DNA of 18,046 nucleotides from a virus (taxonomy: Duplodnaviria; Heunggongvirae; Uroviricota; Caudoviricetes): the IMG/VR virus record IMGVR_UViG_2802429220_000008, positions 1 to 18,046 of that record; one strand, 5' to 3'. This document shows, piece after piece, positions 3,196-14,397 of this stretch. Below the pieces are notes generated by a model that had not been told where the DNA came from, made no database searches, and saw nothing but the letters and a program-made list of their open reading frames with translations. Position numbers and translations under genes: made by a program. The number at the start of each line of letters is the position of its first letter. Positions within the stretch are counted from its first letter, which is position 1.

Positions 3196-3231
3196 GTAGG
3201 CTTTGCTTATAGTTTTTTAGAGGAGAGCAAA

Positions 3232-3504
3232 ATGCTAGATAGCACTCGCGAAAAAATTAGGCAGAAATACACTCAAGCTGAAATAGGTCGTTATATGGGG
3301 GTCGCTCAACAGACAGTTTGGCAATGGTTTAGCTTTGACGTTCCCCCAAAGCAGGTAATTCCGTTATGTCAGCTAATGAAGTGGGAAGTTACCCCGCATG
3401 AAATTCGCCCTGATATTTATCCTAACCCAACCGACGGTTTACCTGTTGGATTCAAGGTTAACACATCAAATGCACCGGAGTTGATTCATGAAAATCAAGC
3501 ATGA
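3232..3504 (+). CDS. Cro-like regulator, YdaS family
   Basis: 90 aa; HTH-like AEIGRYMGVAQQTVWQWF and the YdaS-type motif TPHEIRPDIYPNP; AGGAGAG RBS; divergent from repressor. Confidence 0.75.
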   Translation: MLDSTREKIRQKYTQAEIGRYMGVAQQTVWQWFSFDVPPKQVIPLCQLMKWEVTPHEIRPDIYPNPTDGLPVGFKVNTSNAPELIHENQA

Positions 3505-7786: not shown

Positions 7787-7849
7787 TGCTGCGGGTGCTT
7801 GAGGCTGTCTGCCTCGGGCATGCCACCGTAAGGCAGACAGAGAAAAGCC

Positions 7850-7915
7850 CCAGTTAACATTACGCGTCCTGCAAGACGCCTAACATTAATCTGAGGCCAA
7901 TTTCATGCTAGACAT
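7850..7915 (-). ncRNA. Predicted Sok-like antisense RNA region (boundaries uncertain)
   Basis: Inferred from hok-family organisation; candidate minus-strand promoter -35 TTGCCT (7948..7943), 17-bp spacer, -10 TAACCT (7925..7920) would give an RNA antisense to the mok start; no clean terminator found. Confidence 0.25.
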
Positions 7916-8117
7916 ATGTAGGTTAGCCTCTTACGCGCCGAAAGGCAAGGAGAAGCAGGCTATGAAGCAGCAAAAGGCGATGTTAATCGCCCTGATCGTC
8001 ATCTGTATCACCGTCATAGTGACGGCACTGGTAACGAGGAAAGACCTCTGCGAGGTACGAATCCGAACCGGCCAGACGGAGGTCGCTGTCTTCACAGCTT
8101 ACGAACCTGAGGAGTAA
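7905..8117 (+). CDS. Mok-like reading frame (in-frame leader encompassing hok)
   Basis: 70-aa ORF MLDICRLASYAPKGKEKQAMKQQK... with GAGG 8 nt upstream; same frame as hok, resembling the arrangement remembered for MokC/HokC. Confidence 0.5.
   Translation: MLDICRLASYAPKGKEKQAMKQQKAMLIALIVICITVIVTALVTRKDLCEVRIRTGQTEVAVFTAYEPEE
7962..8117 (+). CDS. hok: Hok/Gef-family type I toxin (HokD/RelF-like, 51 aa)
   Basis: MKQQKAMLIALIVICITVIVTALVTRKDLCEVRIRTGQTEVAVFTAYEPEE: single TM helix plus conserved TRKDLCE...REVA.F.AYE motif. Confidence 0.9.
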   Translation: MKQQKAMLIALIVICITVIVTALVTRKDLCEVRIRTGQTEVAVFTAYEPEE

Positions 8118-11232: not shown

Positions 11233-12291
11233 ATGCTTAATACTGTAAAAATATCCAGTTGTGAGTTAATCAACGCCGACTGCCTGGAATTTATCCGGTC
11301 GTTACCCGAAAATTCTGTTGACCTGATAGTCACGGACCCGCCGTACTTTAAAGTGAAGCCTGAGGGCTGGGATAACCAGTGGAAGGGCGACGATGATTAC
11401 CTGAAGTGGCTGGACCAGTGTCTTGCGCAGTTCTGGCGGGTGCTGAAACCTGCCGGAAGTCTTTACCTGTTCTGTGGCCATCGCCTGGCATCTGATATCG
11501 AAATCATGATGCGTGAACGCTTCAGTGTGCTGAACCATATTATCTGGGCGAAGCCGTCCGGACGCTGGAACGGGTGCAACAAGGAAAGCCTGCGGGCGTA
11601 TTTTCCGGCAACAGAGCGCATTCTGTTCGCGGAACATTATCAGGGGCCGTATCGTCCGAAAGATGCCGGGTATGAGGCGAAGGGCAGGGCACTGAAACAG
11701 CATGTGATGGCCCCGCTGATTGCTTACTTTCGTGATGCGCGCGCTACCCTGGGGATAACGGCAAAACAGATTGTGGATGCCACAGGAAAGAAAAACATGG
11801 TGTCGCACTGGTTCAGTGCCAGCCAGTGGCAGTTACCGAACGAGGATGATTACAGAAAACTTCAGGTGCTGTTTGCCCGGGTGGCAGAAGAGAAACATCA
11901 GCGGGGTGAACTGGAAAAGCCACATCACCAACTGGTCAGCACATACAGTGAGCTGAACCGGCAGTATGCCAGCCTGCTGGAAGAGTACAAATCACTGCGG
12001 CGTTATTTTTCCGTATCGGCAGCCGTTCCTTATACGGATGTCTGGACGCACAAGCCTGTGCAGTATTATCCGGGCAAACATCCCTGTGAAAAACCGGCAG
12101 ATATGTTGCGGCAAATGATTACCGCCAGCAGTCGTCCGGGTGACCTGGTTGCAGATTTCTTCATGGGGTCCGGTTCGACAGTCAAAGCAGCGATGGCGCT
12201 GGGGCGTCGTGCAATTGGTGTCGAGCTGGAGGCTGAACGTTTTGAGCAGACCGCAAGGGATGTACAGAATTTAATCAGAAAGAGAGAGTGA
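11233..12291 (+). CDS. Orphan DNA methyltransferase (N6-adenine or N4-cytosine, DPPY motif)
   Basis: 352 aa; DLIVTDPPYF near the N-terminus and FFMGSGST near the C-terminus; no adjacent restriction endonuclease ORF. Confidence 0.8.
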   Translation: MLNTVKISSCELINADCLEFIRSLPENSVDLIVTDPPYFKVKPEGWDNQWKGDDDYLKWLDQCLAQFWRVLKPAGSLYLFCGHRLASDIEIMMRERFSVLNHIIWAKPSGRWNGCNKESLRAYFPATERILFAEHYQGPYRPKDAGYEAKGRALKQHVMAPLIAYFRDARATLGITAKQIVDATGKKNMVSHWFSASQWQLPNEDDYRKLQVLFARVAEEKHQRGELEKPHHQLVSTYSELNRQYASLLEEYKSLRRYFSVSAAVPYTDVWTHKPVQYYPGKHPCEKPADMLRQMITASSRPGDLVADFFMGSGSTVKAAMALGRRAIGVELEAERFEQTARDVQNLIRKRE

Positions 12292-12331
12292 TATTGCTGA
12301 ATTTATTCTGTAACGTTATCATTATGTTATC

Positions 12332-12407
12332 GGCCCTTTAGCTCAGTGGTGAGAGCGAGCGACTCATAATCGCCAGGTCGCTGGTTCAAATCCAGCAAGG
12401 GCCACCA
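12332..12407 (+). tRNA. tRNA with CAU anticodon (Met, or Ile2 if lysidine-modified)
   Basis: Manual fold: acceptor ggccctt/aagggcc, D-arm gctc..gagc, anticodon loop cuCAUaa, T-arm gctgg-ttcaaat-ccagc, 3' ACCA. Confidence 0.85.
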
Positions 12408-12408
12408 A

Positions 12409-12474
12409 CCGCCACTAGCTCATCAGGAAAGAACGTCACCCTGTGCGAGATTCGGAGTCCCCGGTGGCGGTCCA
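12409..12474 (+). other. tRNA-like remnant (perfect acceptor stem and CCA but too short, no canonical T-arm)
   Basis: ccgccac ... gtggcgg followed by tcca, 66 nt overall, sitting between two intact tRNAs where Stx-type phages carry three tRNAs. Confidence 0.35.
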
Positions 12475-12487
12475 TTATCAGCATTAT

Positions 12488-12564
12488 GCGTTGTTAGCTC
12501 AGCCGGACAGAGCAATTGCCTTCTAAGCAATCGGTCACTGGTTCGAATCCAGTACAACGCGCCA
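12488..12564 (+). tRNA. tRNA-Arg (anticodon UCU)
   Basis: Manual fold: acceptor gcgttgt/acaacgc, D-arm gctc..gagc, anticodon stem attgc/gcaat with loop cuUCUaa, T-arm cactg-gttcgaat-ccagt, GCCA end. Confidence 0.85.
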
Positions 12565-12575
12565 TATTTATTTAC

Positions 12576-12617
12576 CTGGCTCGCTTTTGCGGGCCTTTTT
12601 TGTATCTGCGTTACACC
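12576..12617 (+). repeat. Terminator-like element, copy A (ggctcgc-tttt-gcgggcc + ttttttgtatctgcg)
   Basis: Imperfect hairpin plus T-tract directly downstream of tRNA-Arg; about 80 percent identical to 13173-13213. Confidence 0.6.
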
Positions 12618-12653
12618 ATTAACTAATAAATCGAGTGCTTATCAGGAGGCTAT

Positions 12654-12878
12654 GTGAAAAAACTGATGGTGACGATTGGTCCGTTCGAAACAGAAGTTAG
12701 TTTTCGTGTTGTTCAGGGGGAGAGTGTACTTGTTGAAGATGTATTTCATGGAAAATCAACAGGTCCTTATGTAAAAGAATATCTTATCGACGCCACGGAT
12801 GAAAATATTGAGGTGGTGTACGATTCCGTCAATCACCCTGATTTGATCATTAAGGCAAAATTGAAGCCACTTTATTGA
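12654..12878 (+). CDS. Hypothetical small protein (74 aa), AT-rich cargo gene
   Basis: AGGAGG 4 nt upstream of GTG start; MKKLMVTIGPFETEVSFRVVQGESVLVEDVFHGK...; no family recognised. Confidence 0.5.
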   Translation: MKKLMVTIGPFETEVSFRVVQGESVLVEDVFHGKSTGPYVKEYLIDATDENIEVVYDSVNHPDLIIKAKLKPLY

Positions 12879-12930
12879 TCTGACCGGGAGCAATCATAAA
12901 ATATCTCTGGGTACCCACAAGGAGATAAAT

Positions 12931-13140
12931 ATGTTTGTTTCTGAAGTGTTAATGGAAGATAAGGACAACAAAGGATGGGTTAAAGGTTGGGCTGTGGTAA
13001 GAAGCTCGCCCTGGCATCTTGTTGGGGTTTTTGCGACAGAGGAAGACGCAGAAACGGAAGCAAGAAAGATGGGAGATAAGTACGAGGTTCACTATGGCTC
13101 GCATCGAACAGGAAGTGATGATTTTGTCTGGGGGGAGTAA
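12931..13140 (+). CDS. Hypothetical small protein (69 aa)
   Basis: AAGGAG 6 nt upstream of ATG; MFVSEVLMEDKDNKGWVKGWAVVRSSPWHLVGVFATEEDAETEARKMG...; no family recognised. Confidence 0.55.
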   Translation: MFVSEVLMEDKDNKGWVKGWAVVRSSPWHLVGVFATEEDAETEARKMGDKYEVHYGSHRTGSDDFVWGE

Positions 13141-13172
13141 CAGTCGTTTAACCCCAGAATAATCCCGTAACT

Positions 13173-13213
13173 GAGGTCGCTATTGGCGGCCTTTTTTGTA
13201 TCCGCGCCACGCC
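13173..13213 (+). repeat. Terminator-like element, copy B (ggtcgc-tatt-ggcggcc + ttttttgtatccgcg)
   Basis: Second copy of the element at 12576-12617; together they bracket the two small ORFs. Confidence 0.6.
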
Positions 13214-13329
13214 CGGCACATATCAACCACAGAGCCTTTCGGGGGTGAGCTTACGGAGTGGTCAGTGTGACTTTCTCTGTGGGCAGATCGCTCCCGGGCG
13301 TTGGCTCACCCACCCAAAGGAACGTCACG

Positions 13330-13761
13330 ATGTTTGGTATTTTCAAAAAGAAAACCCGCAGAGCAGCAGCGGAAATTAAAAAGTTTGAGAAACGTGATCT
13401 GGCACAGGCGGTTATTAATGCTGCCTATCTGGTGGCCTATGCAGATGGTGAATGTGAGGCTTCAGAGAAAGCGAAGATCGAGCAGGTCTTGCGTAACCAG
13501 CCAGCGTTGTCCGCGTTTACGTCAGAAATTAATGCTATCAGTGCCACGATCACAGGTCAGCTTGACACCAACTTTAAAATTGGTCGTCGAGCGGCGTTGC
13601 GTGAAATTGAAGATGTGAAACACGATACGCGTGAAGCGGAAGATGTGCTGGATGTGGCGGTGGCCATTGCTGAAGCAGATGGTGAAATTGAGCCGGAAGA
13701 GCGTAAGGTTCTGGAAGAGATCGCCGGTGTTCTTGGCCTGCGACTGGAGAACCACCTGTGA
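13330..13761 (+). CDS. TerB-like domain protein
   Basis: 143 aa from ATG 13330 (AGGA 8 nt upstream); two TerB-like repeats AYADGECEASEKAKIEQVL and AEADGEIEPEERKVLEEIAGVLGL. Confidence 0.6.
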   Translation: MFGIFKKKTRRAAAEIKKFEKRDLAQAVINAAYLVAYADGECEASEKAKIEQVLRNQPALSAFTSEINAISATITGQLDTNFKIGRRAALREIEDVKHDTREAEDVLDVAVAIAEADGEIEPEERKVLEEIAGVLGLRLENHL

Positions 13762-13922: not shown

Positions 13923-14156
13923 CCGGGTATCAGTCATGCCCTGAAAATTTTAAATGTCTCACAATTCAGACGGTTGACAGTTGTCTGGTTTGCGGGGAGT
14001 TTGTTAAAAGAAACTGGCATGGTGAATCCCCCTGAGCGGAGGGGCATATCAGCGCAGGTGTTTCTACTCTATCCTTTCTGTGCGGGTTCAGGTGCTGATA
14101 CTGAACTCACCGGGAGGCACCCGGCACCATGCAAGAAAAAGAATGTGCATGCAAAC

Positions 14157-14184
14157 ATGCCCCTCTCCGGAGGGGCATTTTTAT
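14157..14184 (+). terminator. Intrinsic terminator
   Basis: Perfect 9-bp stem atgcccctc/gaggggcat, loop tccg, then ttttat. Confidence 0.6.
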
Positions 14185-14397
14185 GGGTAAAAAATGCCCG
14201 AATGGGTTCGGGCAATAGCATGAGATACTGATATTGTTGTGTTGTTATCGTGTGGATTTTAACCAGGGTTTATCAGGCTGCGCAACTGCGTGGCCTTTTT
14301 TCATTTCTTGGGCTGTAGTCCCCGTGTGTCATTCAGGCTTCCGGACTACAGCCCACTCCATATCTGATTTAATACACTATCCCGGCCGGGAGGAATA

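Follow-up and report, generated by a model that had tools for sequence, protein, structure and literature searches.

Positions 12576-13213 of an 18,046-nucleotide (nt) stretch of Caudoviricetes DNA (IMG/VR record IMGVR_UViG_2802429220_000008; the whole stretch is called the window below) hold two small open reading frames (ORFs), ORF1 and ORF2, between two terminator-like repeats. Gene content and annotation identify the window as a lambdoid prophage's regulatory and late-leader region. We conclude that the interval is very probably an accessory moron, a class of lambdoid phage element reportedly treated by Juhala et al. in 2000, and that it has the architecture of one: ORF1, a structured leader, ORF2 and an intrinsic terminator. 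Its site is the 3' edge of the terminator behind the argO-type tRNA, within the late-operon leader Q-tRNA-(stx)-TerB-nanS. Beyond what an earlier sequence-only reading had noticed, we found that the two genes are conserved as a pair, for which a second common home lies after spanin genes, and that the second gene is preceded by a conserved hairpin with a palindromic loop, masking its Shine-Dalgarno (SD) sequence and AUG.

The published definition of a moron includes a promoter for expression from the repressed prophage, with HK97 gene 15 and lambda bor/lom as examples (PMC3594210). Three of the four features listed there are found in silico in the cassette, namely extra DNA between adjacent genes, a deviating GC content and a terminator of its own. 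As to the fourth, its own promoter, none was found 5' of ORF1, and a 9/12 match lies 5' of ORF2, overlapping the hairpin. The cassette is also like lambdoid morons in its horizontal spread and its use of known sites (downstream of PR' and after the lysis genes); it is unlike them in having two genes, no clear ORF1 promoter and a conserved translational hairpin between its genes.

Terminator joints and presence of the cassette

Both ORFs proposed by the sequence-only reading are annotated by RefSeq (Table 1), and both have the strong ribosome-binding sites (RBSs) claimed for them, AGGAGG 5 nt 5' of the ORF1 GTG and AGGAG 6 nt 5' of the ORF2 ATG. A promoter scan of the plus strand of the leader in front of ORF1 (12611-12653) gave no convincing sigma-70 promoter. 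The flanking repeats are real as well: 12581-12617 and 13177-13213 are 81% identical over 37 nt and have in common the 19-mer GGCCTTTTTTGTATCYGCG, which occurs in exactly two copies in the window and whose sharing exceeds chance (0 matches in 200 shuffles). Their description as terminator-like agrees with a terminator pattern scan, which placed in each copy a stem followed by a T-run, with predicted folds of -13.8 kcal/mol (z -4.2) on the left and -12.7 kcal/mol (z -4.0) on the right, where the stem is GAGGTCGCTATTGGCGGCC. Both copies combine a GC-rich hairpin with a U-run and match the pattern of Rho-independent terminators, as which they are predicted. The cassette had further been called AT-rich, which holds only moderately, with a GC content of 0.43 (ORF1 0.39, ORF2 0.46), the window as a whole having 0.50 and the neighbouring genes 0.49-0.55.

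The region 12300-13350 (1051 bp) is 100% identical to DNA of Escherichia coli OkiPb01678, a bovine isolate. Among complete E. coli genomes, the whole 1051-bp query was present in 90 and its tRNA part alone in more than 3,000, and at lower-ranked loci the query split into two pieces ~450 bp apart. An empty-site query was covered to at least 80% in 819 genomes and the cassette interior to at least 80% in 93 (at least 99% identical in 102 records). In the empty form, seen in FORC_042, 2011C_3361, CP55 and phage Evi, only one terminator separates tRNA-Arg from TerB, and the same three elements are contiguous in the retrieved loci L002, L003, L004 and L007. Alignment across the tRNA-TerB interval in relatives thus revealed the insertion polymorphism on which the sequence-only reading had staked its case.

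The joints could be placed by comparing the two forms. In the alignment, the one terminator that empty sites have shares its stem with the left copy in the window. Beyond GTATC(T/C)GCG, empty sites continue as the sequence 3' of the right copy (CCACGCCCGGC...), and the window's left copy runs into cassette DNA (TTACACCATTAAC...). The left joint falls at ~12610/12611 and the right joint within 13188-13206, beyond which the sequence is that of the empty site. Since the left copy and the right flank together equal the single empty-site terminator, the unit measures 596 bp and its joints lie in the duplicated terminator tail, which supports the idea of a cargo module, present or absent as a whole, inserted at a terminator. 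In the account we favour, the left repeat would be the resident argO terminator and the right repeat the cassette's terminator fused to the tail of the resident one, so that both joints would lie inside the 19-nt GGCCTTTTTTGTATCYGCG.

Compared with strain 2011C_4247, positions 12576-13329 showed 0-2 mismatches, against 24/282 in the tRNA flank and 36/432 in the TerB flank, and the cassette is nearly identical across prophages whose flanks differ by ~8%. A near-identical cassette in diverged flanks bears the mark of recent horizontal exchange, which brought it into diverged backgrounds.

The direction of the event tells less clearly for our account, in that deletion between the two repeats would give the same empty site and insertion is to that extent unproven, and the right terminator stem is unlike both the resident terminator and the common post-lysis-cassette terminator. 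If the occupied state were ancestral, empty sites would have arisen by recombination between the terminator repeats; recombination in the shared GGCCTTTTTTGTATC core indeed gives the exact empty-site hybrid of left stem and right tail, and the CP55 empty site carries the right-copy variant GTATCCGCG. We nevertheless regard deletion as rather improbable, with empty sites ~9x more frequent and more diverse (88-100% identity) than the nearly clonal cassette, a cassette GC content below that of its surroundings and a commoner home of the cassette family after the lysis genes. The two processes are not mutually exclusive.

Several side observations concern the same site. OkiPb01678 carries the identical cassette twice (L001 13001-14051 and L014 3501-4055), in two lambdoid prophages with different Q-region genes. 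In O145 strain RM11626-C1 (L013 2930-3210) and its relatives, ORF1 and the first seven ORF2 codons have been lost to an IS3-family element; what remains of ORF2 keeps its annotation and is present in several O145 genomes. Three IMG/VR loci (L053-L055) hold a variant cassette between tRNA-Gly and TerB, with ORF2 88% identical and the same right-hand terminator at its end, implying that the tRNA-proximal site is used with more than one tRNA.

The proposal that this is the equivalent of the Shiga toxin (stx) locus was borne out. In common with the window, Stx2 phages have the tRNAs and the left terminator as far as ...TATCTGCGCC, beyond which come the stx2 promoter region and stxA, whose start lies ~90 nt after argO; the stx divergence point is 2-3 nt beyond the cassette's left joint. 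The left stem is likewise present in Stx phages, the sequences diverging immediately after GTATCTGCG. More broadly, what follows the argO terminator varies between TerB, the cassette, stx2AB and other DNA; in some genomes the T-run gives way to unrelated DNA, in others a diverged empty-type tail leads into a lysis cassette. The 3' edge of the argO terminator is, by these comparisons, a recurrent recombination joint, within a region downstream of PR' that has already been described as a moron insertion site (PMC4104026). In one Stx2 phage, no second copy of the argO terminator was found after stxB, where a different terminator stands.

Like the stx1/stx2 operon, the cassette is a two-cistron unit at this locus with its left joint, in the argO terminator tail, within 2-3 nt of the same place, and stx is read from the Q-antiterminated late transcript. 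Unlike it, the cassette encodes proteins without sequence or fold similarity to StxA/StxB and without signal peptides, stx has a promoter of its own, and the right joints differ, stx being followed by its own region and nanS and the cassette by TerB. With no Pfam match and no signal peptide, nothing but genomic position is shared with the Shiga toxin (AB5) family. Uncharacterised morons are common at the stx locus, and the cassette is not in itself unexpected there; the site downstream of Q and the tRNAs houses the Shiga toxin genes, so that other users of the joint inform models of stx and cargo swapping in pathogenic E. coli.

The gene pair and its genomic homes

ORF1 and ORF2 are real genes, both under purifying selection: between diverged cassettes and the window, ORF1 is 38-45% and ORF2 59-71% identical, and the ratio of nonsynonymous to synonymous substitution rates (dN/dS) is 0.08-0.37 where dS is unsaturated. 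Both products are acidic and soluble, with isoelectric points of 5.0 (ORF1) and 4.9 (ORF2). ORF1 is predicted to form a six-strand beta-sandwich and ORF2 a beta-beta-alpha-beta fold, the latter with the conserved motifs SPWHLxGV and YGSHRxGSDDF. We found no hydrophobic segment in either protein, and no signal peptide, transmembrane segment or lipobox.

The sequence-only reading could name no family for the two proteins, and hidden Markov model (HMM) searches led to the same result: no characterised structural or regulatory family, and only two families of unknown function, PHROG 2571 (phrog_2571) for ORF1 (E 1.9e-26) and PHROG 4280 (phrog_4280) for ORF2 (E 6.1e-41, full length). Neither protein had a significant match in Pfam, NCBIfam or PADLOC, and weak matches to DUF7336, SPOR and Cas7c (E 0.005-0.2) fell below curated cut-offs. 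Profile searches of PDB sequences were negative for both, and a fold search against BFVD was uninformative. Both proteins are unlike known toxins, antitoxins and DNA-binding folds, and no sequence or structural similarity was found to characterised anti-defence members (Acb2, Tad1/2, Acr, Ocr-like). A literature search found nothing for WP_000735807, WP_000498121, ECO26_2257 or mEp237_060/061. The label DUF2188, given by one source to a single Pseudomonas homologue, was not reproduced by hmmscan in the 14 members tested.

The two families differ greatly in size. ORF2 relatives form at least 219 clusters at 90% identity in Enterobacterales and Pseudomonas, and an exhaustive phmmer search found 11 ORF1 representatives among 1.84 billion proteins. 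Two long ORF1 matches from phmmer (P0026, 1181 amino acids; P0027, 530 amino acids) are repeat proteins matching over a short stretch and were treated as spurious, and an ORF1 profile match at L001 26295-26453 was an artefact of the out-of-frame C-terminal tail of P0030 in the alignment.

Diverged ORF1-ORF2 pairs lie between a spanin/Rz gene and terminase, with order and short spacer kept, as in phage mEp237 (genes 060/061) and E. coli CEA601S and SBF22. An ORF1-like gene stood directly upstream of the ORF2-like gene in all ten hand-sampled Enterobacterales contexts (10/10), and the same order was seen in Xenorhabdus, Yokenella, Klebsiella and Yersinia genomes and on three metagenome contigs. 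For an unbiased set, we retrieved 80 IMG/VR loci with the ORF2 profile. The ORF1-like gene was directly upstream in 75 of 78 informative loci, and a terminator-like hairpin with a T-run followed ORF2 within ~30 nt in 72 of 79. Some 24 of the loci (~24) read tRNA, pair, TerB and are near-identical to the window, and most others read lysis genes, pair, then terminase or other genes. The pair occupies at least two late-operon sites, one after the tRNAs and one after the spanin genes. We observed that the commonest terminator of post-lysis cassettes, (A/G)GCCTCGC-NNNN-GCGGGGCTTTTTTATG (L060-L087; for example L074 ~3220-3250), closely resembles the argO terminator GGCTCGCTTTTGCGGGCCTTTTTTGTATC, a likeness that could have supplied the homology for the cassette's move to the tRNA site.

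The genes need not be paired. In Stx phages an ORF1-like gene can follow Rz without an ORF2 partner, its start overlapping the Rz stop, and one ORF1-like gene is fused into a 198-amino-acid protein in phage YDC107_1. ORF2-like genes occur alone immediately after spanins in L071, L073 and L086, as well as in Pseudomonas phages (antisense within tail genes) and Pseudomonas chromosomes, and no conserved partner was found upstream of the Pseudomonas genes.

Separately, we noted that ORF2-family genes lie repeatedly near defence or anti-defence genes (L019, L030, L107). In L019 (1-5700) the pair stands between an antirepressor and Band_7, with a SIR2_2 protein and a TerB-like gene before the antirepressor and an Acb2/Tad1-hairpin gene after Band_7; L107 has an Acb2-like gene immediately upstream of the pair; and in Pseudomonas an 878-amino-acid SIR2_2 gene is inserted beside the chromosomal ORF2-like gene in L030 (4001-7486) but not in L029.

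The leader element before ORF2

The leader of ORF2 is predicted to fold into a conserved hairpin that masks the gene's own RBS and start codon (Table 1). The 5' arm is an anti-SD sequence, and a CAT upstream of it pairs with the start codon. The motif TAnnAT - N2-4 - (T/C)CTC(C/T) - GGGTACCC - A-rich - GGAG(A/G) - N5-8 - ATG is present in 33 of 46 unique leaders, despite synonymous-site saturation in the coding DNA of the cassette. Variants that preserve pairing include ATCTCC/GGAGAT, TTCTCC/GGAGAA, CCTCC/GGAGG, GCCTCT/GGAGGC, CCATCT/AGATGG and CATGCA.../...TGCATG. In a 36-sequence alignment, 82.6% of cells were paired in the hand-specified structure, compared with 36-63% when the 3' partners were slid. 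Compensatory changes were present in 18 cells, and none of 500 shuffles did as well (0/500), a statistic that overstates significance, the structure having been derived from the same, related sequences. A further reservation is that RNAalifold alone gave no consensus structure for the 36 ORF2 leaders; the hairpin was therefore specified by hand and its pairs counted, which is weaker evidence. Searches of Rfam at gathering and E-value thresholds found no family for the hairpin or the terminators.

The loop palindrome covaries as well, being GGGTACCC in most leaders and GGTTAACC in a subfamily, with its pair 25-28 GC in 27 sequences, UA in 5 and AU in 1. A hairpin loop of 2 nt cannot explain such covariation, which therefore points to a dimeric ligand, a DNA operator or an RNA-RNA contact. 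The leader element is absent from the Pseudomonas singletons and so belongs to the paired cassette. The MS2 replicase operator and RNA thermometers are translational hairpins that bury the SD sequence and AUG. By analogy of function only, the leader would resemble them in placing the SD sequence and start of the downstream cistron in a stem-loop, with a loop conserved far beyond folding needs.

The same segment can also be read as DNA. A sigma-70-like match, TTGATC-16-TAAAAT (TTGATC 12875-12880, TAAAAT 12897-12902; 9/12 matches), overlaps the hairpin and would put the transcript start at about GGGTACCC. The conserved TAnnAT of relatives is confounded with the anti-AUG arm of the hairpin, so that the promoter and hairpin readings are not separable computationally.

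Possible roles and genomic setting

We chart the following account of the cassette, which we hold to be reasonably probable as a whole: a late-transcribed two-protein moron with a gated ORF2 and joint action in the lytic cycle. The Q-modified polymerase would read through the argO terminator, and the pair would probably be transcribed with the late genes, because no promoter is evident for ORF1 and ORF1-like genes abut or overlap Rz elsewhere. On the long late transcript, translation of ORF2 would be held back by the hairpin burying its SD sequence and AUG, with the invariant palindromic loop suggesting a specific partner that acts in trans. Both proteins are small, acidic and cytoplasmic, and they may then act together as an accessory counter-defence or host-takeover factor. 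This joint role is the weakest step, and we propose it tentatively.

A possible counter-defence role is suggested by gene neighbourhood (at L019 and L107 the pair has an Acb2/Tad1-type gene beside it, and there are SIR2-type and TerB genes in the vicinity) and by the small, acidic, soluble character of the proteins. In these properties, as in being phage-encoded and in variable accessory regions, they are like small counter-defence proteins such as the Acb2/Tad-type sponges and Acr, and an Acb2/Tad1-hairpin gene adjoins the pair in the two loci just named; unlike them, they show no detectable similarity to any of these proteins, and most known examples are single genes. We infer a ranking of roles that runs from counter-defence or host takeover through lysogen-expressed exclusion or conversion and a lysis-associated function to toxin-antitoxin. 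Whatever its role, the pair is a well-delimited candidate for accessory-gene screens (anti-defence, exclusion, lysis modulation), and the conserved regulatory hairpin is directly testable.

Three points speak against a purely lytic module. A classical moron has its own promoter, and none is evident 5' of ORF1; the promoter-like element before ORF2, with its conserved TAnnAT, would permit expression of ORF2 in the lysogen, to which a role of benefit to the prophage would be better suited than a lytic one; and in Pseudomonas phages the ORF2-like gene lies antisense in the tail genes, as lysogen-expressed morons do. One alternative is a conversion or defence moron expressed in the lysogen, in which a promoter inside the cassette, at the end of ORF1 (12875-12902), would drive ORF2, either alone or with ORF1. 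A transcript starting at about GGGTACCC would lack the 5' arm of the hairpin and leave the RBS free, the palindrome at +1 would be an operator, and the lysogen would gain from the product, for instance through the exclusion of other phages. Diverged cassettes keep TAnnAT 2-5 nt before the anti-SD arm and, 17-18 nt upstream, a hexamer that is T-rich or reads TTGnnn, covariation in the palindrome leaves it palindromic (GGGTACCC versus GGTTAACC), the Pseudomonas genes are single and either antisense to the tail operon or chromosomal, and expression from the repressed prophage belongs to the classical definition (PMC3594210). However, the -35 elements are weak, and pairing with the AUG accounts equally well for the conserved CAT of TAnnAT. 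The cassette encodes no obvious repressor for the palindrome, its two products being acidic and lacking a DNA-binding fold; PADLOC gave no matches, and ORF1 would still be without a promoter. We judge this alternative unlikely.

Equally doubtful, taken in its entirety, is a wider idea: that ORF1 and ORF2 would be an uncharacterised module for counter-defence or prophage-encoded defence, with a dedicated RNA or DNA operator (the SD/AUG hairpin and the invariant GGGTACCC) read by a cassette protein or a host factor, and that it would hop via terminator joints between two lambdoid late-operon moron hot-spots, one of them the stx site.

A distinctly less probable alternative is a lysis-associated accessory pair, co-regulated with holin, endolysin and spanin, that would modulate lysis, in its timing or its completion, or a step after it. 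Its attraction is position: most diverged copies lie between spanin/Rz genes and terminase, the ORF1-like start overlaps the Rz stop in Stx phages, and the pair is upstream of lysis genes in the window and in Xenorhabdus (L017). Both positions are generic lambdoid moron sites, however, which makes position weak evidence; moreover, the proteins lack the signal peptide, transmembrane segment or lipobox of most lysis regulators, the Pseudomonas homologues are away from lysis genes, and 819 genomes have no cassette at the tRNA site.

The toxin-antitoxin pair suggested by the sequence-only reading, or an abortive-infection pair, is very improbable: like type II systems the cassette has two small, adjacent, co-oriented genes that are usually co-inherited, and it also has asymmetric rates of change between the same cassettes (the ORF1 and ORF2 identities given above) and an apparently tightly controlled downstream gene, but unlike those systems it shows no obligate pairing, either gene being carried singly by phages that are otherwise intact, no resemblance to toxin, antitoxin or defence models or domains, no DNA-binding antitoxin fold and no autoregulated promoter 5' of the pair, and several O145 genomes stably maintain the IS3 truncation, in which ORF1 is gone and most of ORF2 remains.

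Table 1. Features of the cassette and its surroundings, in window coordinates
Feature	Position	Strand	Description
Q antiterminator, then small ORF			first in gene order, upstream of the methyltransferase
DNA methyltransferase	11233-12291
tRNA-Ile2 (CAU)	12332-12407
Decayed argN (middle tRNA) remnant	12408-12487		between the ileZ-type and argO-type tRNAs
tRNA-Arg (UCU), argO-type	12488-12564	+	ARAGORN; Rfam tRNA 70.1 bits; RefSeq
Resident argO terminator (predicted)	12578-12610	+	left repeat copy; stem-loop 12578-12595, T-run, tail GTATCTGCG
Cassette 5' leader	12611-12653	+	ORF1 RBS AGGAGG at 12643-12648
ORF1	12654-12878	+	GTG start, 74 amino acids; RefSeq WP_000735807.1, hypothetical protein
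ORF2 leader hairpin (predicted)	12890-12938	+	fold -14.0 kcal/mol, z -3.1
Outer stem			CAUA 12895-12898 pairs with start-codon region UAUG 12930-12933
Inner stem			12902-12908 pairs with SD region 12921-12927
Loop palindrome GGGTACCC	12909-12916
Leader motif parts			TAAAAT 12897-12902; ATCTCT 12903-12908; AGGAGAT 12920-12926; ATG 12931
ORF2	12931-13140	+	ATG start, 69 amino acids; RefSeq WP_000498121.1, hypothetical protein
Cassette's own terminator (predicted)	13173-13206	+	right repeat copy; stem-loop 13173-13193, T-run, tail GTATCCGCG
TerB-family gene	13330-13761	+	Pfam TerB E 1.4e-16; PHROG 632; annotated in L002-L004
DUF3927 gene			downstream of TerB
SASA/DUF6645 NanS-like esterase	14398-16248		then holin and lysozyme

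The cassette had been placed in the tRNA-nanS interval, which is correct in that it directly follows the tRNAs, but TerB, DUF3927 and two small RNA (sRNA) genes come before nanS. The tRNA-Arg gene and the TerB gene, both outside the cassette, are the conserved left and right neighbours of the insertion site, and TerB directly follows the argO terminator in empty sites.

The tRNA at 12332-12407 is called tRNA-Met (CAT) by ARAGORN and tRNA-Ile by RefSeq; it is the ileZ-type tRNA of Stx phages, presumably Ile-decoding once lysidine-modified. Neither ARAGORN nor Rfam found a tRNA at 12408-12487, where argN has decayed in the window. Relatives such as CP55 and 2011C_4247 have three intact tRNAs, and the two-tRNA state recurs in FORC_042 and in a second prophage of OkiPb01678.

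Downstream, the sRNA STnc100 (13988-14188, plus strand; Rfam 151.6 bits) lies between DUF3927 and the NanS-like gene, convergent with AgvB, an anti-GcvB sRNA (14189-14250, minus strand; Rfam 96.5 bits). Convergent sRNAs of prophages in enterohaemorrhagic E. coli were reportedly described by Tree et al. in 2014, and the STnc100/AgvB arrangement in the window matches that description. In the early-right region of the prophage, at 7793-7967, a sok antisense RNA (Rfam 114.3 bits) accompanies a Hok/Gef-family gene, forming a type I toxin-antitoxin locus.

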